DNA of 61,534 nt from a virus (Duplodnaviria > Caudoviricetes), in the IMG/VR virus record IMGVR_UViG_3300042539_001144, positions 1 to 61,534 of that record; one strand, given 5' to 3'. The number at the start of each line of letters is the position of its first letter. Position 1 is the stretch's first letter. This document shows positions 1 to 61,534 of this stretch, in pieces. The notes under the pieces were generated by a model. That model was not told the DNA's origin. It was given only the letters and a program-made list of their open reading frames with translations, and ran no database searches. Made by a program: the position numbers and the translations under genes.

Positions 1-127
1 AGGGGCTGGCGCCGGGTCCTTGGCGGTCGGTCTGGAGCGGTATCGATTGGTCACATTCCGGACTTGGCCGCCGTGCCACGCCCGGCCGGTTCGCTGCCTA
101 GACCCCCATCGGTTCAGGGCCGCGGCA
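1..127. repeat. Terminal direct repeat, copy 1 (assembly overlap of a circular contig)
   Basis: 1-127 is identical to 61408-61534; 127 nt equals a common assembler k-mer length; an ORF reads through the junction. Confidence 0.95.
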
Positions 128-444
128 ATCCGCTCCGTGCTCCAGCCGTGCTCCCGGGCGAGCGTGGCGGCACGCACTACGGCCATCTCGGCCGGGACCT
201 CTTCGAGTTGCCCGTCACGGCGCACCGCGTACCCGTACGGCGGCCTGCCGACCCATACGCCTTCCTCCCGGCAGCGACTCATCCCCTGTCTGATGAGGGG
301 GCCCGGAGCCATGTTCCGGTTGGTGTGATGCGCCCTGCCGTGACACCGACCGCAGAGCGGCACCGTCTTCGTGCCACCGCGGGAGCGGGGGACGACGTGA
401 TGGTCGACCTCGGCGGGTGAGCCGCACTCGAAGCACTCGGGCAT
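1..444 (-). CDS. HNH endonuclease fused to a serine-recombinase-type DNA-binding domain (5' part; 170 aa across the junction; not in ORF track)
   Basis: Hand translation from ATG 444: MPECFECGSPAEVDHHVVPRSRGGTKTVPLCGRCHGRAH (HNH), then GVWVGRPPYGY...LEEVPAEMAVV...GWSTERIAAALNRWG...GRAWHGGQVRNV (Recombinase-domain-like); continues 61407-61339. Confidence 0.8.
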   Translation of the reverse strand, partial: MPECFECGSPAEVDHHVVPRSRGGTKTVPLCGRCHGRAHHTNRNMAPGPLIRQGMSRCREEGVWVGRPPYGYAVRRDGQLEEVPAEMAVVRAATLAREHGWSTERIAAALNRWGSRQRTGRAWHGGQVRNVTNRYRSRPTAKDPAPAP

Positions 445-718
445 GCGCCGAGTTCAGCGCGAGATGGCGAGGTCGCCAATGCGGTCTCGTTTAGGTGCGT
501 TGAGTGCGTGAGAAGATTTTGCGAGTCAACTCGGGGAGGCACGTATATATGGGGCCGTCGCCGCCGGGGGCCGGGGCCGGGGGCATGCCGCCGCCGCCGC
601 GGACGCCGCGGGCCGCGATTCGCAGGGCGGACGCTGTGCAACGAGGGAACCATGGTTGCACACCCCCAAAAACAGCCTTGATTTTGTAGCCGTTCCCTCC
701 CGCCCGCCATCCCTCCGC

Positions 719-758
719 CCGCGTCGTCCGCATTCATCACGCCGCGTCGTCCGCATTC
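719..758. repeat. 17-bp direct repeat CCGCGTCGTCCGCATTC x2
   Basis: Copies at 719-735 and 742-758, in the non-coding region between divergent transcription units. Confidence 0.75.
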
Positions 759-813
759 GTGGGCGATCTTCCCGCCGCGGCGGGCGGACCGCGTTTCCCC
801 CGGCGATATCGGC

Positions 814-832
814 GAGCGGCTGACTGTTCTGG
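814..832 (+). promoter_or_regulatory. Early junction motif copy
   Basis: GAGCGGCTGACTGTTCTGG; matches consensus GATCGGCTGAnwGTTyy. Confidence 0.55.
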
Positions 833-893
833 AGGGACGACCAACACACCGCGACCGCTCCCCTCCGGTGGTCGTGACGATGGAGGATGAACG

Positions 894-1133
894 ATGGACG
901 CGATCCGCACTCGGCAACTCTCGGTGGCCCTCTCTGGCGACGACGCCACGTTGGTCGTCGCGGCACTCGCCGCGTTCCGGGTGGAGATGGAGACCGCCAT
1001 CTTCAACACGGAGCACACCACGGACCACGACGACGACGACGCGAACGATTCCATGGCGATCAACCGCCGCCGGATCGCACAGTGCCAGCGGTTGTGCGAC
1101 CAGATCGTTTCGGCCCTCGTCTTCGCCCGCTGA
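894..1133 (+). CDS. hypothetical protein
   Basis: GGAGG RBS; 79 aa; first gene of the early block. Confidence 0.7.
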   Translation: MDAIRTRQLSVALSGDDATLVVAALAAFRVEMETAIFNTEHTTDHDDDDANDSMAINRRRIAQCQRLCDQIVSALVFAR

Positions 1134-1137
1134 TCGC

Positions 1138-1157
1138 TGATCGGCTGATTGTTTCGG
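1138..1157 (+). promoter_or_regulatory. Early junction motif copy
   Basis: TGATCGGCTGATTGTTTCGG. Confidence 0.65.
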
Positions 1158-1170
1158 ACACACCACCACG

Positions 1171-1206
1171 ACGGCCCGCACGGGAGCGTTTCCCGCTGCG
1201 GGCCGT
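1171..1206 (+). other. GCGTT-loop bulged hairpin
   Basis: ACGGCCCGCA-CGGGA-GCGTT-TCCCG-C-TGCGGGCCGT, followed by TTTCAGGAG RBS. Confidence 0.7.
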
Positions 1207-1229
1207 TCGCATTTCAGGAGACCCCATCG

Positions 1230-2126
1230 ATGATCGCGTGCAACACCACCACCGGCCCGGTTCCCCTGATCGAACCGGCGGGCGAAGAGTTTCAGGTCGG
1301 CGAGATTCTCACGACGAACGCCAAACTGGAGAAGGCCCCCGACGGCGACGAGATCATGGTCCGCGGCGTCAGCATGGCACCGGCGAAGCGTAGCGGCGTC
1401 GGCAACGTCTGCCTGTTCGCGACCCGGGCCTGCATCATGGCGTGCGTGCTCTGGTTCGGCGGTCGCACCGTCACCGAGTCCGTGCGGCACGCTGCCATCG
1501 CCCGGACGCTGCTGTTCTTCCTGCACCCCGGCGTGTTCTTCGCCCGCCTCGACCGCGAACTGCGGAAGTGGCTGCGGGCGGCTGAGAAGGCTGGCGTGCG
1601 GTTGTACGTCCGCCTCAACACGGCGTCGGACATCACCTACGCCCCGTGGTTCATGCGGCAGTACCCCGGCTGCACGTTCTACGACTACACGAAGGACTAC
1701 GACCGGGCCTTGGCGTACGGTCGCGGGCTGCTGGCCGACAACTACCACGTCTCGTTCAGCGTGAGCGAATCCACGACGTGGGAGCAGGTCGCCACGCTCC
1801 ACGCCCTCGGCGTCAACCTTGTCGTGCCCGTGTCGTCGCACTACGTGCCGCAGGAGCACCAGTACGGCTACCTGCCCGAGCAGATCGTGTTCGTCGGCCC
1901 CTGCGGCGAGCGGATCACCACCGTCTGCCGCGACGGCGACAAGAGCGATCCCCGCGTGCCGGAGTACGACGGCCGCGGCGTGAGCGTGGGCCTGCGTGGC
2001 AAGGGAACCAACGCCGCGAAGGCTGCCGCGAACGAGCACGAGTTCTTCCGCCCCTTCGGCCTCGGCGACCAGTACTTCGCCGAGTTCCGCCAGAAGGGCA
2101 CCTGCATCGTGCGGCTCGCCGCCTGA
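1230..2126 (+). CDS. GP88-family protein
   Basis: VRLNTASDI, FYDYTK, NYHVSFS, DGDKSDPR and VGLRGKG motifs typical of phage Gp88-like proteins; CAGGAG RBS before ATG 1230. Confidence 0.75.
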   Translation: MIACNTTTGPVPLIEPAGEEFQVGEILTTNAKLEKAPDGDEIMVRGVSMAPAKRSGVGNVCLFATRACIMACVLWFGGRTVTESVRHAAIARTLLFFLHPGVFFARLDRELRKWLRAAEKAGVRLYVRLNTASDITYAPWFMRQYPGCTFYDYTKDYDRALAYGRGLLADNYHVSFSVSESTTWEQVATLHALGVNLVVPVSSHYVPQEHQYGYLPEQIVFVGPCGERITTVCRDGDKSDPRVPEYDGRGVSVGLRGKGTNAAKAAANEHEFFRPFGLGDQYFAEFRQKGTCIVRLAA

Positions 2127-2143
2127 TCGGCTGACTGTTTCGG
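2124..2143 (+). promoter_or_regulatory. Early junction motif copy
   Basis: TGATCGGCTGACTGTTTCGG, overlapping the stop codon. Confidence 0.65.
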
Positions 2144-2180
2144 AGTACTGATTCCCCAACCCTCAACGGAGACCCTGACC

Positions 2181-2534
2181 ATGTCCTGCGTCGGCTACAA
2201 ACTCTGCCGCTGCCGTCACTCCACGCCGCACCTTCGCGGCATGGTGGCTTCGTGCCGCCACTCCGGTGCCACCGTGTACCGCATCCGCGTCTGGTTCGGC
2301 GGGCTAACGCCCACCACCGAGAAGCGGGCCACGAAGTGGTCGGCATCCCGGCTGCTGTCCGACGTCATGCGTCGATACCCGCAGGCCGTGCGGATCGACA
2401 TCGACTGCGACACATCGCGTCCCTGCACCGAGGACTCACCCAAGGGCGTCATGTGGGTGGCCGCGAAGCCGCAGACGGTCGAGTGGGAGCGTGACCGCGA
2501 CTGCTACGAGATCAACGACGAGTACCGTTCCTGA
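2181..2534 (+). CDS. hypothetical protein
   Basis: GGAGACCCTGACC-ATG leader; 117 aa. Confidence 0.65.
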   Translation: MSCVGYKLCRCRHSTPHLRGMVASCRHSGATVYRIRVWFGGLTPTTEKRATKWSASRLLSDVMRRYPQAVRIDIDCDTSRPCTEDSPKGVMWVAAKPQTVEWERDRDCYEINDEYRS

Positions 2535-2562
2535 CCCCAACCCCAACCCGGAGACCCTGACC

Positions 2563-2847
2563 GTGAACGTCCACCTCAATGCCGATGCCCCCAACGCCAA
2601 CGATGTGCCGACGCTGCACAACCTGACCTACATGACGCTCGCGGAGTACTGCCGGGTCGGCGGCTTCGACGAGGAGGTCATCCGCGAGACGCTCGCCCTC
2701 TGCGAGGTGACTTGGGGATCGCCTGCCACGGAGACATTCCTCCGTGCGTCCGACGTTGCCCTCGCCTGCGAGTTGCACTGCGTCGATTCTGCGGGGGCTG
2801 TGCCTGCTGGCATCTCCCCCGACCTGTTCGTGCGGCTCGACGCCTGA
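2563..2847 (+). CDS. hypothetical protein
   Basis: Identical GGAGACCCTGACC leader before GTG 2563. Confidence 0.65.
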   Translation: MNVHLNADAPNANDVPTLHNLTYMTLAEYCRVGGFDEEVIRETLALCEVTWGSPATETFLRASDVALACELHCVDSAGAVPAGISPDLFVRLDA

Positions 2848-2870
2848 CCACACACCCACAACCCAGTACT

Positions 2871-2906
2871 GCGGCCCCGCCGGGAGCGTTTCCCGAGCGG
2901 GGCCGC
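2871..2906 (+). other. GCGTT-loop bulged hairpin
   Basis: GCGGCCCCGC-CGGGA-GCGTT-TCCCG-A-GCGGGGCCGC, then GTTTCAGGAG. Confidence 0.7.
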
Positions 2907-2930
2907 GGTCGTTTCAGGAGGAGAGTTCCC

Positions 2931-3311
2931 ATGATCCGCGTTCGATTCCACCTCGGTGCCGGTGCCCACTTCATGCACTGGCAGATCACGCACCACGACG
3001 GCAGCGTGACCTACCACGACCCCGACGCCTGCACCCTCACCATCTGGCAGGGCAGGCTCCGCAACCAGCCCGCCGCTGCGGCCCGCATCCACGCCGGTGC
3101 CAACAAGACCGTGTGTGCGTGGATCGAAGCCGAGCGGGTGGACGTTGACCCGGGCGTGTCGGGCGTGATGGGCGGTGCCCACGCTTCCTACAACCCGCGG
3201 GTCGCACCTCACTGGGTGATCAACGGACAGAACTCGGACGGTCGCAGGTTCCCGGTGCTCACCACCGCAGGGAGCCGCGTGTTCGTGCCCGAGATGCAGG
3301 CGATCGGCTGA
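2931..3311 (+). CDS. hypothetical protein
   Basis: AGGAGG RBS; MIRVRFHLGAGAHFMHWQI start. Confidence 0.7.
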   Translation: MIRVRFHLGAGAHFMHWQITHHDGSVTYHDPDACTLTIWQGRLRNQPAAAARIHAGANKTVCAWIEAERVDVDPGVSGVMGGAHASYNPRVAPHWVINGQNSDGRRFPVLTTAGSRVFVPEMQAIG

Positions 3312-3320
3312 TAGTTCTGG
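3302..3320 (+). promoter_or_regulatory. Early junction motif copy
   Basis: GATCGGCTGATAGTTCTGG; its TGA is the upstream stop codon. Confidence 0.65.
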
Positions 3321-3351
3321 ATCGACAACCTCAACACGAAAGGACGATGCG

Positions 3352-3756
3352 ATGACCATGCGATTTGAAGGCAAGTTCCAGTGCAACCCGCAGCCCGGCG
3401 ACTTCCTGACCCTGAACGTCGGCAGCGTCGAGGTGCGGGCCACCATCAAGCACGACGGCCACTCCCGGCCATCGGACTACGAGTGCTACACGCCAGCCGA
3501 CTGCGAGTCGTGGAGGCGGGGCGAGTGGTACTTCTGCGGCGTCGTGATCTCCGTGCGTGCCAACGGCCGCTCGGTGGACGAGCACCACGAATCCCTGTGG
3601 GGCATCGACGTCAACAACTCGGGCGACTACGTCACCGAGATCGCCAACGACATGGCGAAGCGTGTCGATCTGACCGAAATCGCACTGCGTCTCGGCGAGT
3701 GCTCGCGATCCCTGCGTAACGCACGGGACTCGATGCTGCTCGGCTCGCCCGTCTGA
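3352..3756 (+). CDS. hypothetical protein
   Basis: AAGGA RBS; 134 aa. Confidence 0.7.
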   Translation: MTMRFEGKFQCNPQPGDFLTLNVGSVEVRATIKHDGHSRPSDYECYTPADCESWRRGEWYFCGVVISVRANGRSVDEHHESLWGIDVNNSGDYVTEIANDMAKRVDLTEIALRLGECSRSLRNARDSMLLGSPV

Positions 3757-3841
3757 CCCCGGCCCGTGGTCGGCAGCCCTCCGCGTGGCGGGCTGCCATC
3801 CGTGGATCGTGGATCGCTTGAACCTACCGGAGTACTGAATC

Positions 3842-4297
3842 ATGGCTGACGTGAAGTGGTCGGTGAGCAATGACCGCGAAGACGACGAGGCGTATATCGA
3901 GAACGAGCGTGGCGTGGAGTGCGTCCAGATTCAACGCACAAACGGCCCAGCCCTGACCCGGGGCGAGTTCGACGTGATCGTCGACCTCATCGCTGCCGCA
4001 CCGGAGATGCTCGCCGCACTGCGTGACCTGCGTGCCACGCTGGAGGCGTTGACGGGGTGGCGTGAACTCGACGGCACGCAGATCGATCAACTCATCGCCA
4101 GCGATGGGCTGCACTACCTCGACAAGGTCATCGCCAAGGCCGAGCCGGTTCGCGAGGTTCGCCGGAAGGTGGAAGTCACGGTCGAGGTCACACTCGACGT
4201 GCAGGCGGGCACCGATGACGCCACCCTCGCCATGATCGCGGTCGATGCGGTGCGTGACGGCGGCGGCGCTGTCACTGCCCACAAGGTGATCGGCTGA
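3842..4297 (+). CDS. hypothetical protein
   Basis: LIAAAPEMLAAL motif common in phage early proteins. Confidence 0.75.
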   Translation: MADVKWSVSNDREDDEAYIENERGVECVQIQRTNGPALTRGEFDVIVDLIAAAPEMLAALRDLRATLEALTGWRELDGTQIDQLIASDGLHYLDKVIAKAEPVREVRRKVEVTVEVTLDVQAGTDDATLAMIAVDAVRDGGGAVTAHKVIG

Positions 4298-4306
4298 TAG
4301 TTCCAG
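4287..4306 (+). promoter_or_regulatory. Early junction motif copy
   Basis: TGATCGGCTGATAGTTCCAG. Confidence 0.65.
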
Positions 4307-4314
4307 ACACACAG

Positions 4315-4356
4315 ACCACGACCCCGGCAGGTGCGTTGCCTGACCGGGGTCGTGGT
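4315..4356 (+). other. GCGTT-loop bulged hairpin
   Basis: ACCACGACCCCGG-CAGGT-GCGTT-GCCTG-A-CCGGGGTCGTGGT, then GTTTCAGGAG. Confidence 0.7.
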
Positions 4357-4370
4357 GTTTCAGGAGGTGC

Positions 4371-4718
4371 ATGATGAATCGGTATCAGTTCACGAACGCG
4401 GCGGGCTTTCGCCTCGTCGAGCGGTGCCTCAAGTTCAACACCGCGATGACGCTCGGCGAGGTGCCGTGCCTTGAGGTGGAGGGGTGGCTCGCGGTGGAGG
4501 GGTATCGCGGCGAGTTCGCCATGCACGAGTTCGTGCAGTGGCTCAAGGCCAACGCCCCGTCGTCCACGTCCGCAGCCAAGGTGCTCGGGCTGGTGGCGAT
4601 GGGCATGGCATCGGAGATGGTTCGCGACCGGGAGTTCATCGACAAGGTGGAAGCGTTCCACTCTGCGATGACCCGGCGGTTCGGTGTGGACAAGAGCGAC
4701 GTGAAAGGGGGCGAGTGA
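4371..4718 (+). CDS. hypothetical protein
   Basis: AGGAGG RBS; 115 aa. Confidence 0.7.
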   Translation: MMNRYQFTNAAGFRLVERCLKFNTAMTLGEVPCLEVEGWLAVEGYRGEFAMHEFVQWLKANAPSSTSAAKVLGLVAMGMASEMVRDREFIDKVEAFHSAMTRRFGVDKSDVKGGE

Positions 4719-5047
4719 TGCGACGAGGCACCAACGTCATGCGGCTCCGCGATGAGCGGGCCAAGGACATGAAGGCGGAGCGGTGGTCGAGGGTCAACGT
4801 GCGGGGCATCAACCCGTACACCATCGACCGGGTGGTCGGCACCTTCACCACGGAGTTCTCTCGCACTGGGCGGAGCCTGCCCATCGGCGAGTACTCCACC
4901 GTGGAGGTGCGGGCGTACGACGTGCGGTGCCCGGACGGCACCACGTTCCGGTTCGCCCGACTGAAGGACGCGAAGACGTTCATCGTGTACGAGAGCAACG
5001 GCCTCCTCATCCCGGCAGCCCTCGCTGCTGGCCTGAAGGTGGGCTGA
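4718..5047 (+). CDS. hypothetical protein
   Basis: TGATG coupling to the upstream gene. Confidence 0.6.
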   Translation: MRRGTNVMRLRDERAKDMKAERWSRVNVRGINPYTIDRVVGTFTTEFSRTGRSLPIGEYSTVEVRAYDVRCPDGTTFRFARLKDAKTFIVYESNGLLIPAALAAGLKVG

Positions 5048-5355
5048 TGCGAACCGTCACGGAGGACGAGTACCGGGTGAGCAAGCGAGTCGTGCTCACG
5101 CCCGGCGTGAAGTTCAGGGCAGGCGGCGGGCCGTACTACCGCCTGTCCGATGGCACGAAGGTGAGCCTCGCTGCGGCGGGCCCCTTCACTTTCGTCCGCT
5201 GCCACAGGCGGGGGAAGTACGTGCTGATCGAAGCACTCGACAGGAATGGGTGCTTCGCTCCGCTCCATGTGGCAGGCCGACGGGCAAGGATCACGCCCGC
5301 ACTCGTGCCTCGTCCCTACGTGATCCGTTCCACGGTGAGGAGGAAGGAATCGTGA
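5047..5355 (+). CDS. hypothetical protein
   Basis: TGATG coupling; MRTVTEDEYRVSK start. Confidence 0.6.
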   Translation: MRTVTEDEYRVSKRVVLTPGVKFRAGGGPYYRLSDGTKVSLAAAGPFTFVRCHRRGKYVLIEALDRNGCFAPLHVAGRRARITPALVPRPYVIRSTVRRKES

Positions 5356-5762
5356 AGACCGCGAAGCGAGTGGATCTCCGCCCCATCCGGGCTGCGTTCC
5401 GTGAGTTGATGAAGTACGGCATCCTCTGTGAGGGTGGCCGGTGGACGTGCTGCCAGTCGTGCGGACAGCACGACATGCAGTTGCGGTGGGACAAGGCGGC
5501 CGAGGGCGAGAAGCCTCTCGGCTACGCCTTCTGGCACGCACAGGACGACGACCTGCTGCGTGAGACCGGCGAACTGTGGCTGGCGTTCAATGCCTTCGAT
5601 CAGGTCGACTCCCGGTTCGTGGGCAACCTCGTCGTCGGCGTGCTGAAGAAGCACGGCGTGCGGGCACGGTGGAAGGGCGACGTCCGCACCCGGATCGAGT
5701 GCATCCTCGGGTGGCGCGAAGTGGGCGTGCGATTCGTCACGAAGAAGGGAGGTGCGAAGTGA
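5352..5762 (+). CDS. DUF6891-like protein
   Basis: AFREL..GI...TCCQSCG, GYAFWHAQD, LWLAF and WKGDVRTRI pattern; GTGA coupling. Confidence 0.6.
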   Translation: MKTAKRVDLRPIRAAFRELMKYGILCEGGRWTCCQSCGQHDMQLRWDKAAEGEKPLGYAFWHAQDDDLLRETGELWLAFNAFDQVDSRFVGNLVVGVLKKHGVRARWKGDVRTRIECILGWREVGVRFVTKKGGAK

Positions 5763-5962
5763 GTGGCGATGACGTGCGAGAGACGGTGGCTGGTTTCATG
5801 CGGGCGGCTGGACTGCACCCGTCGCTGATCTACGCCTTCCGCAAGACGGGACTGTTGGTGGGGGAGGATACGCCCCACTCGGATGCAGAGCGGAAGGAGT
5901 TCGTCGATGCCGCCGATGAGTGGTGGAGCCAGAACGAAGTGGTGAAAGGAGGTGCGAAGTGA
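5759..5962 (+). CDS. hypothetical protein
   Basis: MRAAGLHPSLIYAFRKTGLLV; GGAGG RBS; GTGA coupling. Confidence 0.65.
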   Translation: MSGDDVRETVAGFMRAAGLHPSLIYAFRKTGLLVGEDTPHSDAERKEFVDAADEWWSQNEVVKGGAK

Positions 5963-6033
5963 GAGACGAGCAATGGATGCTCGTGATCGAGGTGATCCGC
6001 GTGATCATCGAGATCATCCGGCACGGAGGCTGA
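5959..6033 (+). CDS. small hydrophobic peptide (24 aa)
   Basis: GGAGG RBS, GTGA coupling; MRDEQWMLVIEVIRVIIEIIRHGG; stops at the junction motif. Confidence 0.45.
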   Translation: MRDEQWMLVIEVIRVIIEIIRHGG

Positions 6034-6049
6034 TCGGCTGAGTGTTTTG
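6031..6049 (+). promoter_or_regulatory. Early junction motif copy
   Basis: TGATCGGCTGAGTGTTTTG. Confidence 0.6.
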
Positions 6050-6054
6050 ACGAG

Positions 6055-6098
6055 GCACGGCAGGCCACGGGGGAGCGTTTCCCTCGTGGCCGCCGTGC
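6055..6098 (+). other. GCGTT-loop hairpin
   Basis: GCACGGC-A-GGCCACGG-GGGA-GCGTT-TCCC-TCGTGGCC-GCCGTGC. Confidence 0.65.
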
Positions 6099-6170
6099 TT
6101 TACGGGGGTGGACGGACTCATTGACGGCACCCGGATGATGAACGAGTACTCAATCACAAAGGACTGACAG

Positions 6171-7052
6171 ATGATCGCAACCAATCTCCCCTCGGCTGCC
6201 GAGGGTGCTCTCGTTTGGGTGAACCACGCCGGGCGTGTCCGGGTCAACGTGGTTCGCTCCGTGTTCTCGAACCTCGGGCTGGCGAAGTGCCTGCCCCGCA
6301 AGGAAAAGCGGGCCATCGCCCTGCGGCTGGCGATCAAGGCGTGGCTGATCGCACGGTACGGGAGGAAGGACGCCCGCACCATGCGTCTGTACCCGCTCGA
6401 CCGCCGGGTGCTCGGGTTCGAGGTGCGTCGGAAGGTGGATGGCACCGAGCAGAACGATCACCCGTACGTCTGCACCGTGAAGGCCGACGACCACGGGGCG
6501 TACGTCACGTACGCCGGTGCGGCTGGCCCGCAGCAGGAGACCGACGACGTGACCCGCATCTACCTCGACCGCGTCGAGTGGTACTGCGGCACGACGGTCG
6601 GCTCGCTGATCAAGCGTGCCATCACCGAGAAGTGGATGGGCACCTCGCTCAAGAGCAACGGCGGCCTGTACTTCCTGCCCGGCCAGTACCTGCCCAACTA
6701 CCGGGCGCTGGCCGACGGCATGGAGCGGAGCCCGTCCAACCCGGACTCCGAGTTGGTGATGACCGTCGCCACGTTCGACGTCCGCAACAACCCGAGCGTG
6801 GCCCGTGACGCGATGCTCTCGCTGCGGCAGGAGATCAAGGCGGCGACCGACGAGATCAACGCAGACCTCGTCGGTGCCCACGAGATGACCGAGTCGGGCA
6901 TCGCCAACCGCAAGGCCCGGCTGGCACGGCTGCTCGCACAGGCGGCGGAGTACTCCGCCCTGTTCGAGGCCAGCATCGACGACCTGAAGGGCATGGTCGA
7001 GGGCACGCAGAGCGCCCTTGCCATGGCCGAGTTGGCCGAGGCTTCCGCCTGA
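6171..7052 (+). CDS. hypothetical protein, DUF3150/DUF6744-like
   Basis: GGLYFLP motif and coiled-coil C-terminus; lies beside the AAA/VWA pair. Confidence 0.55.
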   Translation: MIATNLPSAAEGALVWVNHAGRVRVNVVRSVFSNLGLAKCLPRKEKRAIALRLAIKAWLIARYGRKDARTMRLYPLDRRVLGFEVRRKVDGTEQNDHPYVCTVKADDHGAYVTYAGAAGPQQETDDVTRIYLDRVEWYCGTTVGSLIKRAITEKWMGTSLKSNGGLYFLPGQYLPNYRALADGMERSPSNPDSELVMTVATFDVRNNPSVARDAMLSLRQEIKAATDEINADLVGAHEMTESGIANRKARLARLLAQAAEYSALFEASIDDLKGMVEGTQSALAMAELAEASA

Positions 7053-7068
7053 TCGGCTGTGTGTTCTG
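7050..7068 (+). promoter_or_regulatory. Early junction motif copy
   Basis: TGATCGGCTGTGTGTTCTG, then a GC hairpin at 7081-7111. Confidence 0.6.
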
Positions 7069-7143
7069 AGCGATCTCGATGCGGGCGGCGGGCACTGTGC
7101 TCGCCGCCCGCCCTGTTTCACCCCCGAGTTGGAGGACTCTTTG

Positions 7144-8262
7144 ATGTTCAGTCACCCCATGTGGTTCGCGTTCGTTGTCATGCAGACCATGATCCCCACC
7201 CTGCTGATCGGCCCGCCGGGCTGCGGCAAGACGGCCTCGATCATGGCTCTCTCCCACGCCATCAAGCGGCGGTTCGTTCCGCTGATCGGCAGCCAGTGCT
7301 CGCCCGAGGACGTGTCCGGCCTGCCCGTGCCGGACATGGTGAAGTTCCTGTGCCGCATGATGCCCATGTCGTGGGTCGAGGCACTGCTCACCCCGGGCGG
7401 GCTGCTCGCCCTCGACGAGTTCGGCAACACGCCCCCGTCGGTGCATGCCTCGCTGCTCACCGTGATTCAGGACAAGAGGGTCGGCGACCTGACCCTCGAT
7501 CTGGACACGATGATCGTGGCGATGATGAACCCGCCGGAGCAGTCGCCCAACGGCACGCCGCTGTCGCTGCCCACTGCCAATCGGTTCTTCATCACCGAGT
7601 GGAAGAACGACACGGCAGCGTGGATCGACGGGCTCGCAGCCGGGTGCGAGTGGGCTGCCCCGCAGATGCCCATCCTGCCTGACGACTGGAAGACTCGCGT
7701 CCCCCGGTGGGGTGCGCTGCTCGCCACCTATCACCGCCGGTTCCCCGGCCGTGACAACGTGCTGCCGAAGGACGACACGATCCTCCGCTACCCGACCGAG
7801 CGGTCGTGGAGGAACGCCGTTCACTGCCTCGCTGCTGGCGAGGCTGCGGGTGCGGACATGTGGACCGACCAGTCCAACGTCCGGCTCATGGCAGCCGGGT
7901 GCGTCGGTGATCAGGCGGCCGACGAGTTCTGCGAGTGGAAGAGCACGTTCGACATGGCCGATCCGCTCGACATCCTCGACGGCAAGGTGACGTTCAAGCA
8001 CCGCGACGAGCGGCCGGACATCACGATGACCGTGCTCGCTGCTCTCGCCTCGGCGGTGAGCACCGAGTCCACGTTCACGCCGGACCGCTGGGATGCGGCG
8101 GCCATGATCTTCGGTGAGGTTGGCAAGACCAGCCACCCGGAGATGGCGCTCCGCTACACGCGGCTGCTGCTCGATGCGACGGCGAAGTTCAAGCACGCCC
8201 CGTCGGCGAAGGTGCTCAAGCCCCTCGTCGAAATGAACGCGGCGATGAAGGTGGGCGGCTGA
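7144..8262 (+). CDS. MoxR-like AAA+ ATPase
   Basis: Walker A GPPGCGKT, Walker B LALDEF, sensor MNPP, arginine finger ANRF, PTERSW. Confidence 0.9.
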   Translation: MFSHPMWFAFVVMQTMIPTLLIGPPGCGKTASIMALSHAIKRRFVPLIGSQCSPEDVSGLPVPDMVKFLCRMMPMSWVEALLTPGGLLALDEFGNTPPSVHASLLTVIQDKRVGDLTLDLDTMIVAMMNPPEQSPNGTPLSLPTANRFFITEWKNDTAAWIDGLAAGCEWAAPQMPILPDDWKTRVPRWGALLATYHRRFPGRDNVLPKDDTILRYPTERSWRNAVHCLAAGEAAGADMWTDQSNVRLMAAGCVGDQAADEFCEWKSTFDMADPLDILDGKVTFKHRDERPDITMTVLAALASAVSTESTFTPDRWDAAAMIFGEVGKTSHPEMALRYTRLLLDATAKFKHAPSAKVLKPLVEMNAAMKVGG

Positions 8263-8271
8263 TTGTTTCGG
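8253..8271 (+). promoter_or_regulatory. Early junction motif copy
   Basis: GGGCGGCTGATTGTTTCGG, then a GC hairpin at 8274-8303. Confidence 0.6.
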
Positions 8272-8333
8272 GAGGGGCGGCTCGTCACGGTGGCGGGCCG
8301 CCCCATCCCGACCAACACACAAGGGACACAGCG

Positions 8334-9914
8334 ATGGACGCGATGCGAGCGAAGGTTGCCCAGTTCAGGACGGCGGTGAAGAAGATTCTCCCGTACTTCA
8401 CGGGCGAGGTCTACGGCATGATCGCCATCGAGGAGAAGCGCGTCGGCACGATGGCGGTCGACGAGCAGGGGCGGATGTACTACGCCCCCGAGTTCGTGCG
8501 TCGGTGCTCGATCGAGCAGGGCCGGTTCACTGTCTGCCACGAGACGCTGCACGTTGCGCTCGGCCATGCTCGGCTGGCCCGCAAGATTCTCGGCGACAAC
8601 CCGACGCAGTCCATGCTCAAGGCGTGGAACTACGCCGCCGACTGCGTGGTCAACCAGATTCTCGGTGCGTACCTGCACGAGGCGCCGGGCGAGGACGTGC
8701 TCGGCCCGGGTGCCACGATCGTGACGCACCAGACGCTCGGCCTGCCGCCGCGGCTGACCATCACGCAGTACTACGACCTGCTCATGCAGCAGCAGCAGGA
8801 GCAGCCGCAGAACCCGGGCCAGCGTGGCACGGGCAAGGACGATGACACGGAGGACGACGAAGATGAAGACATGGAAGGGGCCGGTGAAGGTGAGCCTGAT
8901 GATCGGGACGGCGAACCTGACGAGCAGGGAGGTGGTGATGGTGGGGAACAAGACGTTCCTCACGATCCTTCTGAAGGCGATGGCGAGGGTGGCGAAGAGG
9001 ACGAAGGCGACGACGACGGTGAAGGTGAGGGTGGCGCTCGTCCCGGCGAAGGAGGTGCCGAACGGGACGGTGGTGCTGATCGCCCGTCGCAAGATGGCGT
9101 CGAGGATTCGTCGGACGCTGAAGGCGAAGGGTGCGACGGCGACCCGGCCGACGACGGTGGGGACGGGTCGTGGTCTCCGACTGGCGGCAGCGGCGCTGAC
9201 GGAGTGCCTCGCGGATACGAGGCCGAGCGAGACCCCTCGTGGGTCGACCGCGAGTACTCGCTCGCCAAGCAACTCGAAGCCGCCATCGAGGAAGCCGAGC
9301 GATCGTCGCCGGGCTCCGTCCCGGGCGAGTTGAAGGCGGCGGTCGGCCTCCGGCTACGGCCACAGCCTGACCCGTACGACGCTCTGCGTGCGTCCGTGGC
9401 TCGGGCTGTGGCCTCGCCGGTCGGTGCCCCCGACTTCACGCTGAAGCGGTTCAGCCGCAGGCAGCAGCCGGGCATGCCGCGCCTGCGTGGCGTGAACAAA
9501 CTCACGCCCAACGTCGTGGTCCTGCTCGACACGAGCGGGTCGATGGGCTTCAGATGCCCGGGCTACGAGCGAGCGGAGCGTGCCCTCGACGTGATCGCGA
9601 AGGGCATACGGAAGTTGAAGTCCGTGCGTGTCATCTGCTGGGACACGCAGAAGCACAGTGCCCGCATGGTGCAGTCCATGCAGGGCTTCGAGGTGCAGGG
9701 TGGTGGCGGCACCGACATGGGGCAGGCCATCGAGACGATCGACAAGGAACTCCGGCCCGACGCCATCCTCATGGTGACGGACTTGGAGACCGGCTGGTGT
9801 GAGCGGAAGCCTAGGGCCCGTGTCGTGATCGCTGCGACCGAGGCGCCGAGCGAGTACTACCCCGTGCCGGGATGGGCGACTGTCGTGGACCTGACACGCG
9901 GAGGTGGGCAATGA
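8334..9914 (+). CDS. DUF2201-family metallopeptidase-VWA protein
   Basis: HETLH zinc motif, WNYAAD, long acidic linker, MIDAS DTSGS, GGGGTD, MVTD. Confidence 0.88.
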   Translation: MDAMRAKVAQFRTAVKKILPYFTGEVYGMIAIEEKRVGTMAVDEQGRMYYAPEFVRRCSIEQGRFTVCHETLHVALGHARLARKILGDNPTQSMLKAWNYAADCVVNQILGAYLHEAPGEDVLGPGATIVTHQTLGLPPRLTITQYYDLLMQQQQEQPQNPGQRGTGKDDDTEDDEDEDMEGAGEGEPDDRDGEPDEQGGGDGGEQDVPHDPSEGDGEGGEEDEGDDDGEGEGGARPGEGGAERDGGADRPSQDGVEDSSDAEGEGCDGDPADDGGDGSWSPTGGSGADGVPRGYEAERDPSWVDREYSLAKQLEAAIEEAERSSPGSVPGELKAAVGLRLRPQPDPYDALRASVARAVASPVGAPDFTLKRFSRRQQPGMPRLRGVNKLTPNVVVLLDTSGSMGFRCPGYERAERALDVIAKGIRKLKSVRVICWDTQKHSARMVQSMQGFEVQGGGGTDMGQAIETIDKELRPDAILMVTDLETGWCERKPRARVVIAATEAPSEYYPVPGWATVVDLTRGGGQ

Positions 9915-10648
9915 CGTTCGACGAACAGGTGGCTGCGCTGCGTGGGAAGGTGGAGCCGAAGCAGTTCAGGGGCGGGAAAGGCGCTGCCACGCCAGAGCAG
10001 TGGGCCGCCCACCTTGACGACGCAGTGCTTTACAAGCGGGCGAGGGCAGAAAGCAGCCCCGAGTGGAGACATCGCTACCGAGAGGCCGACCGCACCTACA
10101 CGCGAGAGTGGAAAAGGAAGAACGCCGGGAGAGTGCGGGAGTACAAGGCAGCGCGGCGCAAGGCCGGGGCCGACGCAGTTCGAGAGCGCGAATACCGCGA
10201 GAAGAACCGGGGGAGGATTCGCGAACGGTACCGGTCGTGGTGTGCTCGTGCTCGCTCAACGGACGTCCACTACCGACTCGTCAAGTCCGTCCGCGGAAGG
10301 CTCCGCGTGGCCGTGAACGGTGGCTACCGATCTGGCTCCGCCGTCCGTGACCTCGGCTGCTCGATCGAGGAACTCAAGTCCCACATCGAACGGCAGTGGG
10401 TCGGCTGTATGTCTTGGGAGAACTGGGGCAGCGGGCCGGGGACTTGGCAGATCGACCACGTCTACCCGCTGGCACAGACAGACCTGACCGACCGGGCCCA
10501 ACTGCTGGCGGCCTGCAACTGGCGGAACCTTCAGCCGATGTGGTTTGAGGACAACGTACGCAAGGGCGATACCGTCACGCCCGAAGCGCAGCAACTGTTT
10601 GACGGGCTGGTCTCGGAGTTCACGGAGGTGCGTGATGAAGTTGCGTAA
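9911..10648 (+). CDS. HNH endonuclease
   Basis: MSWENWG...WQIDHVYPL...NWRNLQPMW..N.RKG; ATGA coupling. Confidence 0.8.
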   Translation: MTFDEQVAALRGKVEPKQFRGGKGAATPEQWAAHLDDAVLYKRARAESSPEWRHRYREADRTYTREWKRKNAGRVREYKAARRKAGADAVREREYREKNRGRIRERYRSWCARARSTDVHYRLVKSVRGRLRVAVNGGYRSGSAVRDLGCSIEELKSHIERQWVGCMSWENWGSGPGTWQIDHVYPLAQTDLTDRAQLLAACNWRNLQPMWFEDNVRKGDTVTPEAQQLFDGLVSEFTEVRDEVA

Positions 10649-11309
10649 GTCGCAGAAGGAGTCGTGGCTGATGCGGGTGCTGATGGATCGGAAGGCCCGG
10701 CCCCTGCCGTACGTCGGAGGCATAGACCTCATGCCCATGGGCCGCACGCTGCTGCGGAAGTGGGCCGACAGGTACTGCGGCGGGTACGGGAAACTCACGC
10801 CGGAACATGCGGTCCGACTGCACGATCGGCTTGTAGTTATGGCGAAGGACATCGACGGTGCGGTCGTCGAGTGCGGCATGGTTCGTGGCCCGGCGTGGCA
10901 GCCCGGATACCTGTGGGCCTACGGTGCCATCGCCGTGCTCGACGAGTACGGCCGGGCGACCAGCGGGTCGGTGCTGATCCCCGGTGCCTCGGCCGTGCCG
11001 TACTACGTGCGCCGCAGCCTGACCAGTCCGAGGCAGTACCACCGCAGCCTCCGCCTGTGGGATGACCTGTGCCCAGTGATCGAGGACATCGCGTCCCCGG
11101 AGACCGTCACCCTCAACCGGAATCAGGTCGCCCGCAAGGACGACGTGAGACCCGGCGACTGCTATCTCTACGACCTGACCCGGGCGCACTCGCCGCGGGT
11201 GGTCGTGGAGAACTTGTACTTCGGCCGGGCCTGTCGGTTCGGCCTGCTCGACGAGATGATTGATACGGCACGGTGCCGTATCGTGTTCGGTTCCCTCGCT
11301 AGTGCGTGA
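10635..11309 (+). CDS. hypothetical protein
   Basis: GGAGG RBS before ATG 10635. Confidence 0.65.
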   Translation: MKLRKSQKESWLMRVLMDRKARPLPYVGGIDLMPMGRTLLRKWADRYCGGYGKLTPEHAVRLHDRLVVMAKDIDGAVVECGMVRGPAWQPGYLWAYGAIAVLDEYGRATSGSVLIPGASAVPYYVRRSLTSPRQYHRSLRLWDDLCPVIEDIASPETVTLNRNQVARKDDVRPGDCYLYDLTRAHSPRVVVENLYFGRACRFGLLDEMIDTARCRIVFGSLASA

Positions 11310-11317
11310 GGTGTGCG

Positions 11318-11413
11318 ATGAACTATCCGTCGGTCCTTGAGATCGTGCAGACGTGGTGCATCATTGTCTGCGTGTACTTCTTCCTCGTAGCCCATAACAG
11401 AATGAGGGTGTGA
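11318..11413 (+). CDS. small membrane peptide (31 aa)
   Basis: GAGGTG RBS; MNYPSVLEIVQTWCIIVCVYFFLVAHNRMRV; fills the gap between neighbours. Confidence 0.4.
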   Translation: MNYPSVLEIVQTWCIIVCVYFFLVAHNRMRV

Positions 11414-11414
11414 C

Positions 11415-11774
11415 ATGACTGGACGATACTGGATGGTCGTGCGGCCCGGCAGATGGTCGCCGGACGAAAAGCGGTTCCCCACCGGGGCCGATGCTCTTGA
11501 GTACGCGCTTCGCTTGGTTCGCCGGGCCAAGCGCAGCGCATTCGTGAAGCACAGGGAGCACTGCCCCGTGCGAGTCTTCGTGGTGACCATGTACGGCGAC
11601 ACCCCCGACGGCATCGCCTACGAGACGGCGATGTACGAGACCGGCGGGCGAGGGGATTACCCAAACTCCGGGCGGTCCATCGACACGGAGTTGCAGGCCG
11701 AGGTCGATGCATCGTGGCAGCACTACTTCATCCACAACCCTGACCAGAAAAGTCTTGAAGAGGAGGACGACTGA
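11415..11774 (+). CDS. hypothetical protein
   Basis: 119 aa; TGATG-coupled to the recombinase. Confidence 0.6.
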   Translation: MTGRYWMVVRPGRWSPDEKRFPTGADALEYALRLVRRAKRSAFVKHREHCPVRVFVVTMYGDTPDGIAYETAMYETGGRGDYPNSGRSIDTELQAEVDASWQHYFIHNPDQKSLEEEDD

Positions 11775-12556
11775 TGGCTACGTGCTACGGATACGGTCGA
11801 GCCAGCACCGACAAGCAGGAACTCACCGAGCAGGTGCAGTCCAAGTCGGTCAAGGAAAAGTACTCCGCCCTGCTCAAGCCCAAGGGCGTCAAGTGGGGCG
11901 GGTGGTACTACGACGCGGCGGTCTCGGGCAGCAAGCCGTTCACCGAGCGGCCCGCTGGCCTGCGCATGTGGATGAACCTCCAGCCCGGGGACTACGTGGT
12001 CACGCACCACAGCGACCGTGCGTTCCGTGACACGGCCGACGGCCTACGGACCTCGGCCCTGTTCCGGGCGAGGGGCGTCGTGCTTGTGATGCCTGACATC
12101 CCGCACGATCTGGAGACTGCGGACGGCGAGATGATGGCGACCATTCAGTTCGCATTGAATCTCCGCGAGCGCCGCAAGGTGGCGGAGCGTACCGCCGCTG
12201 CCATGCGCGTGCTGTCCGAGCGCGGCGTCCGGTTCGGCGGGGCCCGGCAGAGCACGCCAATCGGCTGGCGGTGGGGCGGCGCGGGCTACGTCGAGGACGC
12301 GGAGGAGCGGGCCCGCGTCGAGCAGATGGCCCAGTGGTACGAGTCCGGCCTGTCGCTGGAACGCATCGAGATGCGTGTGTCCTACCCGCCGTACCAGTGG
12401 AAGAGGCGCAGCACTAGCAGTCGCTTCGGAAACTGGTCTCGTCGGTACGTGGCGTTCGCTCTGGAGGCTCGTCGTCTTGGCTATCCGAAGGTCTTCCTGA
12501 ATGGTCGGAGACGCAAGACCGCAGCGCGTCCAGCGCATCAAGCATCCGCGACTTGA
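11774..12556 (+). CDS. serine recombinase (resolvase family)
   Basis: YGYGRASTDKQ catalytic Ser, SG..PFTERPAG, GD.VV...DRAFR, ERRKVAERT helix. Confidence 0.9.
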   Translation: MATCYGYGRASTDKQELTEQVQSKSVKEKYSALLKPKGVKWGGWYYDAAVSGSKPFTERPAGLRMWMNLQPGDYVVTHHSDRAFRDTADGLRTSALFRARGVVLVMPDIPHDLETADGEMMATIQFALNLRERRKVAERTAAAMRVLSERGVRFGGARQSTPIGWRWGGAGYVEDAEERARVEQMAQWYESGLSLERIEMRVSYPPYQWKRRSTSSRFGNWSRRYVAFALEARRLGYPKVFLNGRRRKTAARPAHQASAT

Positions 12557-14761: not shown

Positions 14762-15096
14762 GCGCGGCTCCTCGCGCCATGGACGTGGGCCGCGAAGACG
14801 TGCATGTCGGCGAGCCGCACGGTGATCATCCACTCGCCGCCGTTCTTGCGGTGGCACACCGCCGGGATCGCCCCAGCCTTGGCCGCGTCGGTGGACGCCT
14901 GCGCCATGGCGTTGTCGATGTTGAGCCGCTCGACGCGCTTGCACTCGAAGTGCAGGCCCGGCAGTTCGTCGACCACGACGTCGCTGTCACCGGCCGTGCC
15001 GCAGTACTGCTGCGTGCGGCGTGCCGTGTAGCCCATCGCACTGAACTGGGCGGCAAGTTCCCTCTCTCCGTTGGCACCCTTGGCACGACTGTTCAT
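14758..15096 (-). CDS. Holliday junction resolvase (Hjc-like)
   Basis: MNSRAKGANGERE...SDVV...HFECKR. Confidence 0.85.
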   Translation of the reverse strand: MNSRAKGANGERELAAQFSAMGYTARRTQQYCGTAGDSDVVVDELPGLHFECKRVERLNIDNAMAQASTDAAKAGAIPAVCHRKNGGEWMITVRLADMHVFAAHVHGARSRA

Positions 15097-15476
15097 CACT
15101 TTCCGGCGTTCCGTCGCCGCTCCTGTTTCGCCCACTCTGGCAACTCGGTCGGGTCCTCCTTTAGGCCCGCCCTCCCCTTCAGCCCGGCAAGAAACTTCAG
15201 GTCGACCTCGCCGTCCTCTTCTTCCTTCGCCTTCAGGATGTGGCCCAGCGTCAGCGGCTTGCCCGAGATGCCTGCGTGGTATGCGCGGTGGCACTCCTCG
15301 CAGACGAGGATCAGGTTCCGATGGTGGTGCGGGTCACGCCCTCTCCTGCCGACGATGTGGTGCAGTTCGCACCGCTTGCCCGGGCGGTACTTCCGCCAGT
15401 AGCACACAGCACACCGCTCGCTTTGGAATGCGTACGCCTCCAGCCACTTGCGGTCGGGCTCCTTCTTACGAGCCAT
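15096..15476 (-). CDS. HNH endonuclease
   Basis: CAVC...ELHHI...NLILVCEECH. Confidence 0.8.
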   Translation of the reverse strand: MARKKEPDRKWLEAYAFQSERCAVCYWRKYRPGKRCELHHIVGRRGRDPHHHRNLILVCEECHRAYHAGISGKPLTLGHILKAKEEEDGEVDLKFLAGLKGRAGLKEDPTELPEWAKQERRRNAGK

Positions 15477-16197
15477 CGGGTTCCTCCGCCTGCGTGAGGA
15501 GTTCCCTGCCGTCCTCGCCGAGCACGTCGGCGAAGGGCTGTGCCTCGAAGTTCTCGATCGCGAGCCGGGCCCGGGCTACCAGCAGGTCGTAGAGGGCGCG
15601 CAGTTCCTCCTTGGGGTATGAGTCGTCCTCCCTGCGGCACACCTGCTCGACGGCGTACTTCGAGTACACGAGCAACTCGATGCAGAATCGGTCGGTCTCT
15701 TGCCGTCGGTCCCACCCGAGTTCCCTGCGGGTGATGCACCCGGCGGTGTACGCAGCCGCCTCGTCGAGCGGGTAGATGGCAACGTCCTGCCAGTCCCGCT
15801 GCGCCTCGATCAGGTACGTCTTGTAGGTCTTGCCCCTGTGCTGGGCCGGGATCGCGTCGGCGACGTGAGCCAGTTTCGTCCTGCGTGGGATCGGCACCTG
15901 CCACGCCACGCCGTCGAGCAGGTAGAAGCCGCGCTGCTTCCCGTTGCTGTGCCGCGAGTTCACGAAGTGCGTCCCCTCGTGGGCCCACGTAATGAGACAG
16001 CCATCCCCAGCCCGGGCATGCTCGGCATCAGCGGCCGGGAGCCGGGAGAGAATGTCCGTCAACGCTGGGGGCAGCGTCTTGTCGGCACACTTGCGGATGG
16101 CCGGAGCGTCGACGTCGTCGCCGATTAGCAGCCCGCCGATCCACGCCACCACCACGAACAGCAGAAACACCCACCCGATATCACGAGTCCAGTTCAT
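15466..16197 (-). CDS. membrane-anchored HExxH protein
   Basis: N-terminal TM helix; TWAHEGTH; YPLDE. Confidence 0.6.
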   Translation of the reverse strand: MNWTRDIGWVFLLFVVVAWIGGLLIGDDVDAPAIRKCADKTLPPALTDILSRLPAADAEHARAGDGCLITWAHEGTHFVNSRHSNGKQRGFYLLDGVAWQVPIPRRTKLAHVADAIPAQHRGKTYKTYLIEAQRDWQDVAIYPLDEAAAYTAGCITRRELGWDRRQETDRFCIELLVYSKYAVEQVCRREDDSYPKEELRALYDLLVARARLAIENFEAQPFADVLGEDGRELLTQAEEPDGS

Positions 16198-48904: not shown

Positions 48905-48922
48905 CCGTGGCCTCCACCCTCG

Positions 48923-48930: not shown

Positions 48931-49287
48931 TCACTCGGCCTTCTTGCTGCTCTGCTGGTTCCGGGCCAGCACGGAGACGACCTGCGGCATCATGGTCCGC
49001 AGTTTCTTCAGCGTCTCCGTTGCCGGGTGGAAGCGCCAGCAGCCCCACTGCCGCCACGCGGAGTTGTCCACGAGACCCGGATCGTCCGCGTGACGCACCG
49101 ACGGCTTCTCGACGAACCCCTCGTCGGGAGAGAAGGTCAGGATGAACACCGTGTTCACGCCCGGGCGACGGGAGACCCAGCCGATCACCGGGTCCTTCTG
49201 GTTCAGGACGTTGCTGTAGAACAGCACCATGTCCCCGAGTTCCACCGTCTGCGTCGGGAAGTCAGACCCATTCGTACTGCTCGACAT
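48931..49287 (-). CDS. hypothetical protein
   Basis: GGAGG RBS; GDMVLFY. Confidence 0.6.
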   Translation of the reverse strand: MSSSTNGSDFPTQTVELGDMVLFYSNVLNQKDPVIGWVSRRPGVNTVFILTFSPDEGFVEKPSVRHADDPGLVDNSAWRQWGCWRFHPATETLKKLRTMMPQVVSVLARNQQSSKKAE

Positions 49288-60147: not shown

Positions 60148-60240
60148 CTGCGGGTCCTCCGTTGGGGTGAGCGATCAAACCTCACGCATCGTACGGAGGT
60201 CGTCAATGCGTCCGCGCACATCGATATCTCGGCGCAAAAC

Positions 60241-61188: not shown

Positions 61189-61338
61189 GAGTCCACCTCG
61201 TGGTGGTTATGGCGGGACCATTTTCGTGATTCTCGAATCGCGAAACGTCACCAGACGCAATAGGAGGCGATCTCCCGGCCGATCAGCCTCCGGGGGTGTC
61301 AGGGCAGCCTGAACACCCGTACAGGCCCGGAGAAGTGA

Positions 61339-61534
61339 TTATAGAGCCTCGACGATGGGCAGGGTCTTCTGGCCCGGGAGAAAGCGCTGGTCTGCTACGG
61401 GCGGGGGAGGGGCTGGCGCCGGGTCCTTGGCGGTCGGTCTGGAGCGGTATCGATTGGTCACATTCCGGACTTGGCCGCCGTGCCACGCCCGGCCGGTTCG
61501 CTGCCTAGACCCCCATCGGTTCAGGGCCGCGGCA
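61339..61534 (-). CDS. 3' end of the junction-spanning HNH-recombinase-domain gene
   Basis: Frame continues from position 1 via the overlap to TAA at 61341-61339. Confidence 0.75.
   Translation of the reverse strand, partial: AAALNRWGSRQRTGRAWHGGQVRNVTNRYRSRPTAKDPAPAPPPPVADQRFLPGQKTLPIVEAL
61408..61534. repeat. Terminal direct repeat, copy 2
   Basis: Identical to 1-127. Confidence 0.95.

Follow-up and report, generated by a model that had tools for sequence, protein, structure and literature searches.

Phage HNH endonucleases that carry an additional DNA-binding module are already known, and I-HmuI is a nickase. I-HmuI and the T4 Mob proteins, free-standing phage HNH homing endonucleases placed in groups 1-2 of the His-Me finger classification (PMC5714182), are the described systems closest to a gene found on the IMG/VR virus record IMGVR_UViG_3300042539_001144 (Duplodnaviria; Caudoviricetes), which was analysed over its full 61,534 nucleotides (the window). 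The gene, here called HNH-RD, spans the two ends of the window on the minus strand and encodes a protein of 170 amino acids (aa) in which an HNH nuclease domain is followed by the core of the recombinase domain (RD) of large serine recombinases (LSRs). With I-HmuI and the Mob proteins it shares the build of a small phage protein with an N-terminal HNH domain and a separate DNA-binding module, and with free-standing HNH homing endonucleases the occurrence as a lone gene between conserved genes that is sporadic at a hot spot, the latter in one phage group. In contrast to these proteins, the module of HNH-RD is the C-terminal end of helix E with the RD core of an LSR and not a NUMOD or an ordinary helix-turn-helix (HTH) array, and homing of HNH-RD is suggested here by the distribution of the gene.

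The LSRs (LI/A118, Bxb1, phiC31, and SPbeta; PDB 4kis, 9iu2, 9if5, and 9dxd) share fold and detectable sequence similarity with residues ~46-148 of the window protein, but HNH-RD has no resolvase catalytic domain, serine nucleophile, zinc ribbon, or coiled coil, and its RD is shortened. For the HNH domain, the best sequence matches of solved structure are IscB/Cas9-type HNH domains and McrA, with the shared layout CxxC...HHxxP...GG...LCxxCH. Only the finger of ~40 residues is common to HNH-RD and IscB, as HNH-RD has no RuvC, RNA-binding, or other IscB domain, and the NCBIfam model guided_IscB scores 12.4 bits on the window protein against a cut-off of 175. The terminase-associated HNH proteins of cos phages (PMC3592412) are also small phage HNH proteins with a [CxxC]2 zinc site, whereas HNH-RD is not adjacent to a terminase gene and carries an integrase-type DNA-binding domain. 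A full-text literature search returned no description of an HNH domain joined to an LSR helix-E/RD module, although supplements, which the search did not cover, might list such architectures.

The ends of the window form an exact direct repeat of 127 nt (1-127 and 61408-61534, 100%), and IMG/VR classes the record as one with direct terminal repeats that is 100% complete; the underlying sequence is therefore a circle of 61,407 nt, or a permuted or concatemeric molecule. When open ends are permitted, a minus-strand open reading frame (ORF) starts with ATG at 444 and runs beyond position 1 with 148 aa. The minus-strand frame 61339..61533 repeats the final residues of this ORF and continues with PAPAPPPPVADQRFLPGQKTLPIVEAL to a stop at 61339-61341. 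The gene totals 444 + 69 nt, or 170 codons and a stop, running from 444 to 1 and then from 61407 to 61339. Another viral contig holds an internal and contiguous 170-aa orthologue (L003:5001-5513) with 87% identity across the matched part, and the same C-terminal tail is present in the proteins P0001 (97% identity, 170 aa) and P0002 (85%, 170 aa). The phage occurs in a lake-water time series, with at least 24 runs. Bridging Logan contigs from two other lake-water runs extend from below the ORF stop past 61534 and continue for a further 695 and 1094 letters, the identity of which is not printed by the search. An assembly artefact at the join was considered and is ruled out by the contiguous orthologues and the bridging contigs. 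The coding signal of the ORF is reasonable, with a GC content at third codon positions (GC3) of 0.82 compared to a genome GC of 0.67. An earlier note on this DNA, made from the letters alone, had described a minus-strand ORF of 170 aa across the join and had read it as support for circularity. Its coordinates and length are confirmed, all motifs that it quoted are found (C4xxC7...H15H16..P19...G23G24...L30C31..C34H35 and G66RPPYGY...S102...IAAALN..G...G..W124), and circularity is borne out by the overlap, the orthologues, and the bridging contigs. Its remark that the ORF is missing from the ORF track is plausible, since ORFs that extend past an end are listed only when open ends are permitted.

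Residues 4-40 match PF01844 (HNH) at 22.1 bits, narrowly above the cut-off of 21.4, and at 23 bits in the genome scan. Compared against the PDB, a profile of 54 family members matched HNH domains of IscB variants at E-values from 5.6e-9 to 6.5e-4 and McrA at 3.1e-5. The 54-sequence alignment shows no or almost no variation at the four zinc cysteines and at H15, H16, H35, and H39. Among 97 representatives, collected with a search that uses no word index and covers all proteins, C4, H15, H16, G23, G24, and C31 are kept in 97/97, while C34, H35, and H39 are kept in 96/97 and C7 in 95/97. In the AlphaFold2 (AF2) model the domain consists of strands 13-17 and 26-30 and the helix 32-38. Judged by these residues, it is a CCCC-zinc HNH finger with conserved catalytic residues and is predicted to be an active nuclease.

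The second half of the protein was assigned by profile and by fold. Residues 51-131 match positions 226-307 of the PHROG_95 “integrase” profile at 4.8e-12, and the family profile matches residues 148-250 of the SPbeta integrase at 7.5e-6. The AF2 model, built on the family alignment, has a mean pLDDT of 86 and a pTM of 0.60. With this model, the ten best Foldseek rows were all LSR chains (SPbeta, Bxb1, and LI/A118; best E 3.2e-4, probability 1.00), and so were the six best rows of VIA-align, with Z of 8.7 for SPbeta, 8.3 for Bxb1, 7.6-7.0 for phiC31, and 7.0 for the LI integrase. The root-mean-square deviations and numbers of aligned residues were 5.6 and 127 at Z 8.7, 3.1 and 101 at Z 8.3, 2.8 and 101 at Z 7.6, and 2.6 and 90 at Z 7.0, with model residues ~46-148 placed on integrase residues ~134-254. 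By the notes of the tool a Z of up to 8.7 is middling; unrelated HTH proteins reached Z<=5.5, and the result agrees with the sequence evidence. A homodimer prediction (two copies, alignment A1) scored 0.06 against a mark of 0.42 and gives no verdict on dimerisation.

According to Rutherford 2013 (PMC3783163), the RD is composed of the C-terminal end of helix E and a four-stranded sheet in a four-helix bundle with an HTH-like core; in LI integrase, the linker from helix E to beta6 lies in the minor groove, and Asn259 already belongs to the RD-ZD linker. The same paper places, in the LI integrase-attP complex, the end of helix E at the centre of the site, the linker along the minor groove, and the HTH contacts at roughly positions 9-12. 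The window protein starts this region with the remnant of helix E and the GRPPYGY linker, continues with two short strands and three helices, and then ends at 170 aa. It is an RD core and not a whole RD, and a partial member of the Recombinase-domain family. A Pfam scan found no PF00239 Resolvase catalytic domain in the window protein, and the sole PF00239 match in the genome (11786-12229) belongs to a different gene. Because the defining catalytic domain is absent, HNH-RD is not a serine recombinase, and it cannot be a recombinase. The fusion proposed in the earlier note, of HNH to a serine-recombinase DNA-binding domain with no catalytic resolvase domain, agrees with PF01844, PHROG_95, the SPbeta and IscB profile matches, the fold matches of the AF2 model to LSRs, and the missing PF00239 domain.

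The family is large. The profile search retrieved 18,235 proteins at E<=1e-3, of which 2,671 remained at E<=1e-10 and 378 at E<=1e-30, each counted as the representative of a 50%-identity cluster, and most of the top matches are 135-170 aa long and span both domains. Among the 54 aligned members, Pfam at E<=1e-3 assigned PF01844 to 29, HNH_5 to 19, PF07508 to 18 (best 2.1e-7), and HTH_62 “Recombinase-like HTH” to 4. The two domains differ in conservation, with mean pairwise identities among the 97 representatives of 0.62 for HNH and 0.30 for RD. Five of the 54 aligned members, one of them P0006 with 53% identity, carry the FLPGQ tail, which could be a short partner-binding peptide and may resemble clamp-binding motifs.

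In their source records the proteins are named “hypothetical protein”, with one cluster member named “DNA invertase Pin-like”, while the Atlas clusters carry automatic names such as “HNH endonuclease/Recombinase domain-containing protein” and are 95-100% viral, apart from one with 54%. In IMG/VR contigs, 54 viral loci were found. A scan of 185,579 species genomes with one narrow peptide pattern gave 11 loci, 10 of which lie in metagenome-assembled genomes or metagenome-derived assemblies and ~3 of which have both domains. No full-length copy was found in 50,697 deposited phage genomes at 80% query coverage (tblastn, three members); the partial matches were to an endonuclease or to true serine integrases. 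Megablast of window positions 1-12000 against the deposited phage genomes gave no match either. From these searches, the family is nearly virus-only and comes almost exclusively from uncultured viruses.

Genomic contexts were tallied with a crude ORF caller. The gene was recovered in 30 of 41 two-domain viral loci entered (the 11 loci in which the caller failed were left out), and after six near-duplicates were dropped 24 loci with 118 neighbour ORFs remained. The neighbours included TerL, portal, UvsX-like recombinase, exonuclease, DnaB, clamp, RNR, RusA, endolysin, and tail fibre genes. TerL was confirmed within three genes of HNH-RD in 3/24 loci (L032, L038, and L052) and always on the opposite strand. 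Other confirmed neighbours were DnaB (L040), the sliding clamp (L031), a tail fibre (L033), an UvsX-like gene together with an exonuclease (L061), and an exonuclease (L059).

Adjacent UvsX-like (69-77% identity) and exonuclease (66-76%) genes were found on 11 distinct contigs. HNH-RD lies between the two genes in two of them (L061/L096 and L059), and the other nine loci contained no family match anywhere (seven queries, E<=1e-4). Where HNH-RD is absent, the junction holds a DNA methylase (L100), a NUMOD3/restriction endonuclease protein (L103), or a treble-clef protein (L101), and in L097, L099, and L102 short unassigned ORFs, none of those checked having a Pfam match. In L098, L104, and L105 it is a gap of only 75-81 nt. 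The UvsX-like gene of L104 is interrupted by ~1.5 kb carrying a TnsA-like ORF, and a second HNH gene lies beside HNH-RD in L061. The two hot-spot copies of HNH-RD are 48% identical, compared to about 71-72% for the flanks. As read from these contigs, this is the pattern that free-standing mobile nuclease genes would be expected to leave where an insertion hot spot exists.

HNH-RD is probably a site-specific HNH endonuclease of homing or competition type. This reading is favoured because the family is restricted to viruses, a conserved nuclease is paired with a diverging DNA-binding module, the contexts are variable, and the presence at the hot spot is sporadic. The protein would act as a free-standing, sequence-targeted DNA endonuclease of 170 aa in which the zinc-stabilised N-terminal HNH finger cuts, placed where the serine catalytic domain of an LSR would stand. 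Targeting would be provided by the DNA-binding half of an LSR, which comprises the helix-E end, GRPPYGY as the minor-groove linker, and the HTH-like RD core; as in integrases, the core and helix-E remnant may recognise a specific DNA sequence. If integrase-DNA complexes are a guide, the HNH domain would be held about one helical turn from the sequence read by the RD. The product is likely a nick, or, with two copies on a palindrome, may be a staggered cut.

The coordinates of the gene, its domains, and the adjoining conserved regions are collected in the table.

Table. Position, strand, and supporting evidence of HNH-RD features in the window.
Feature	Position	Strand	Evidence
First 148 codons of the HNH-RD gene	1..444	-	ATG 442-444; open-ended ORF; 100% self-match in own-genome search
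HNH (beta-beta-alpha-metal) domain, residues 4-40; zinc site C4/C7/C31/C34; H15, H16, H35, H39	325..435	-	PF01844, family profile
Helix, residues 47-61, resembling the C-terminal end of serine-recombinase helix E	262..306	-	AF2 helix; aligns with LSR residues from ~134-148 onward
RD core, residues 62-135: GRPPYGY linker and hairpin, three helices with HTH-like motif	40..261	-	PHROG_95, PF07508, SPbeta, Foldseek, VIA-align
Last 22 codons and stop of the HNH-RD gene	61339..61407	-	Tail also in P0001, P0002, and L003:5001-5513
Tail motif FLPGQKTLPIV, residues 157-167	61351..61383	-	Closest subgroup only
Conserved stretch just downstream of the stop with GC-rich hairpin (possible terminator)	61240..61338	-	Window/L003 alignment
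Conserved upstream region with unique 28-bp inverted repeat at 635-662	445..665		First ~220 nt well conserved with L003, rest less
Assembly overlap, exact copy of 1-127, no extra genome	61408..61534		127 nt at 100%; IMG/VR direct terminal repeats

In the window, HNH-RD is a lone leftward unit that is convergent with a gene for a 256-aa membrane protein (60316-61086, +) and divergent from the rightward early operon starting at 894; the gene for the single-stranded DNA-binding protein (SSB) lies at 59773-60174. TerL (49262-51025) and portal (46814-48922) belong to a long leftward late operon ~10 kb from HNH-RD, a separate transcription unit with opposite-strand genes in between. The order of HNH-RD, membrane protein, and SSB is kept in L003, where HNH-RD is 87% identical, and in the distant lineage L022/L094, where the identities are 46-49% for HNH-RD, 41% for the membrane protein, and 72% for SSB. 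Across all syntenic relatives, SSB ranges from 72 to 77% and the membrane protein from 41 to 93%. In the lineage of the window, HNH-RD is a stable, separately transcribed gene between the membrane-protein and SSB genes and the early operon. An empty-allele search, with SSB and the membrane protein as anchors in viral contigs and with the HNH-RD protein in metagenome contigs, found none; it yielded a near-identical fragment ending at window position 61196, before the gene (L089/L092), and one contig of the L022 lineage (L094).

Further genes and signals were observed around the locus and elsewhere in the genome. A second, single-domain HNH gene (15096-15575, -; PF01844 24.9-27 bits) is located at the distal end of the late operon. 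The apparently lytic-looking genome also carries a serine recombinase (11759-12556, +; PF00239 77.4 bits) that is 77% conserved in the record of L003. Its C-terminal part of ~110 residues has no Pfam match and reads like a diverged RD start (PIGWRW...), and BLASTP of the RD part of HNH-RD against the C-terminal half of this recombinase (P0232) was not significant (E 0.14). The second gene of the early operon encodes a GP88-family protein (1149-2126, +; PF17338 99.1 bits, PHROG_1617), the true start of which is probably the ATG near 1227, judging by the L003 orthologue. Among 17 loci of GP88-gene relatives, HNH-RD occurred within 4 kb in the L003/L004 contig only, and these relatives were rejected as empty-site controls for being too distant. 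Downstream of HNH-RD, 61240-61338 has a mean column identity of 94% in the window/L003 alignment, above that of the adjoining coding tail, and its fold of -41.7 kcal/mol (z -1.66) is not significant. On the strand of HNH-RD, ~150 nt past its stop, lies a 31-aa acidic ORF (61093-61188, -) that has a good Shine-Dalgarno sequence and is 90% identical in L003 and 100% in L089. An Rfam match to DUF3800-VIII RNA (58392-58457, -) reached 58.9 bits compared to a gathering score of 40.2. Scans for sigma-70 promoters and terminators around HNH-RD found none except a terminator-like site at 1129-1145, and the GC-skew profile had no clear switch at the locus. A defined physical terminus near the gene was rejected, as L022 and L094 end a few hundred nt upstream at different bases (position 1 of L094 is position 181 of L022).

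The inverted repeat lies ~190 nt upstream of the HNH-RD start and has 8-bp arms and a 12-bp spacer. It occurs in four contigs of two lineages (window, L003, L022, and L094), in all of which the arms are perfect palindromes and the GGTTCC centre is constant. Between the lineages, three arm positions have changed, each of them on both sides (TGTGCAAC/GTTGCACA versus GGGGCACC/GGTGCCCC). In layout and length the repeat resembles a serine-recombinase site or operator, and it is a candidate site for HNH-RD. The fold of its plus strand has a z of -2.33, and 3 of 200 shuffles were as good. A separate early motif, GATCGGCTGAYTGTTYYGGA, has seven matches at up to three mismatches between 814 and 8272 of the window (0.02 expected), all on the plus strand and upstream of early genes; it is not palindromic and is probably an early promoter or regulatory element. 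The earlier note had suggested cutting by HNH-RD at this motif, which is not supported: nothing links the protein to the motif, though the motif is real as a repeated element.

Several findings weigh against a homing-type endonuclease with an integrase-type module. The canonical middle Asn of H-N-H is not evident, with no Asn between GG and LC; a five-residue TKTVP turn, in which T25 and T27 are near-invariant (T27 in 93/97), stands in place of the longer Asn-bearing loop of IscB, and in the IscB alignment four residues including the Asn are deleted in the window protein. The mean pairwise identity in alignment A1 (0.71 for HNH versus 0.27 for RD) is partly an effect of ascertainment on the HNH side, as retrieval relied on shared five-residue words. 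On the RD side, only ~90-100 residues of the ~125-residue RD are present, with LI integrase residues 134-227 aligned, so the RD is not complete, and the relative placement of the two domains is uncertain in the model at its pTM. PF07508 (Recombinase) scored 17.6-19.5 bits, below its cut-off of 21.1, and over model positions 1-48 of 102 only; of the profile matches expected by the earlier note, the HNH match held at 22.1 versus 21.4 and the domain itself was recognised by PHROG_95, while PF07508 at 17.6 fell short. At the locus, no relative of the window phage without HNH-RD was found, as L003, L022, and L094 all carry it in the same place, and such fixed synteny is as compatible with a useful gene passed on vertically as with a selfish gene that became fixed.

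A rival reading is a site-specific nickase for phage replication or recombination, which would bind a sequence such as the 28-bp repeat and nick it to prime replication or to resolve intermediates. In favour of it, the gene neighbours SSB and lies where the early operon diverges, it has the same position in lineages whose copies share 46-87% identity, and in other phages DnaB, clamp, UvsX-like, and exonuclease genes are often found next to it. The repeat is unique, its centre is constant, and the three paired arm changes keep the palindrome perfect, with the arms at positions 7-14 from the centre, covering positions 9-12 that are read by the integrase RD (PMC3783163). However, the window and L003 have identical arms but differ at several positions of the presumed recognition helix (residues ~125-134), the serine recombinase of the phage itself is at least as good a candidate for the repeat, and an operator or a hairpin would account for the repeat just as well. 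With the sporadic hot-spot presence in the other phage group also arguing against an essential role of the family, a replication nickase appears unlikely.

Terminase-associated HNH proteins suggest another role, in which HNH-RD would help to cut concatemers at the packaging site like phage HNH proteins adjacent to cos sites or terminase genes. TerL within three genes in 3/24 family loci would fit this, yet HNH-RD is on the opposite strand to TerL in each of them, and most family loci have non-packaging neighbours. In the window phage such a role is unlikely because TerL is ~10 kb away, with portal, in the separate leftward operon beyond the opposite-strand genes, and the second HNH gene stands at the far end of that operon; overall, packaging is a very improbable function. 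The site-specific nickase that the earlier note had inferred is a reasonable possibility. Of the roles that it had put forward, homing gains support at the family level from presence and absence at the hot spot, whereas packaging loses it on the distance and separate transcription of TerL and on the second HNH gene. Least credible, and hardly to be expected, is a DNA-binding regulator or integrase-site competitor that does not cut and in which the HNH finger is a zinc structural module only. The missing middle Asn, the capacity for DNA binding that the RD and helix-E remnant alone could have, and the conserved palindrome in the gene's own upstream region would suit such a protein, but H15, H16, H35, and H39 are kept in 96-97/97 representatives and HNH is the most conserved part, unlike a decayed active site. 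A site-specific endonuclease of homing or competition type is the preferred explanation.

Variants with tandem short RDs occur among P0063, P0064, P0110, P0075, and P0120. In P0063, P0064, and P0110, one or two HNH heads are combined with as many as ~five units. P0063 (554 aa) has two HNH motifs and about five RD units, while P0075 has a resolvase catalytic domain followed by four RD units. A speculative extension, which we regard as quite unlikely, would be that the mini-RD (PYGY hairpin and HTH, ~75 aa) is a portable, integrase-derived DNA-reading module that is combined with varied catalytic heads and arrayed in tandem. HNH-RD proteins would then be modular nucleases with specificity set by swappable units, and the window copy would cut the constant GGTTCC centre of the 28-bp palindrome with resolvase-like geometry.

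With hosts and phages that are uncultured, the family has so far gone unstudied. An active and specific HNH-RD would be a compact natural nuclease of ~140-170 aa. Its targeting module would come from a protein family that is now engineered for genome insertion and whose DNA-bound structure is already understood, and target prediction and retargeting are therefore directly testable. For phage biology, HNH-RD adds to freshwater phages a class of nuclease genes that is new and likely mobile.

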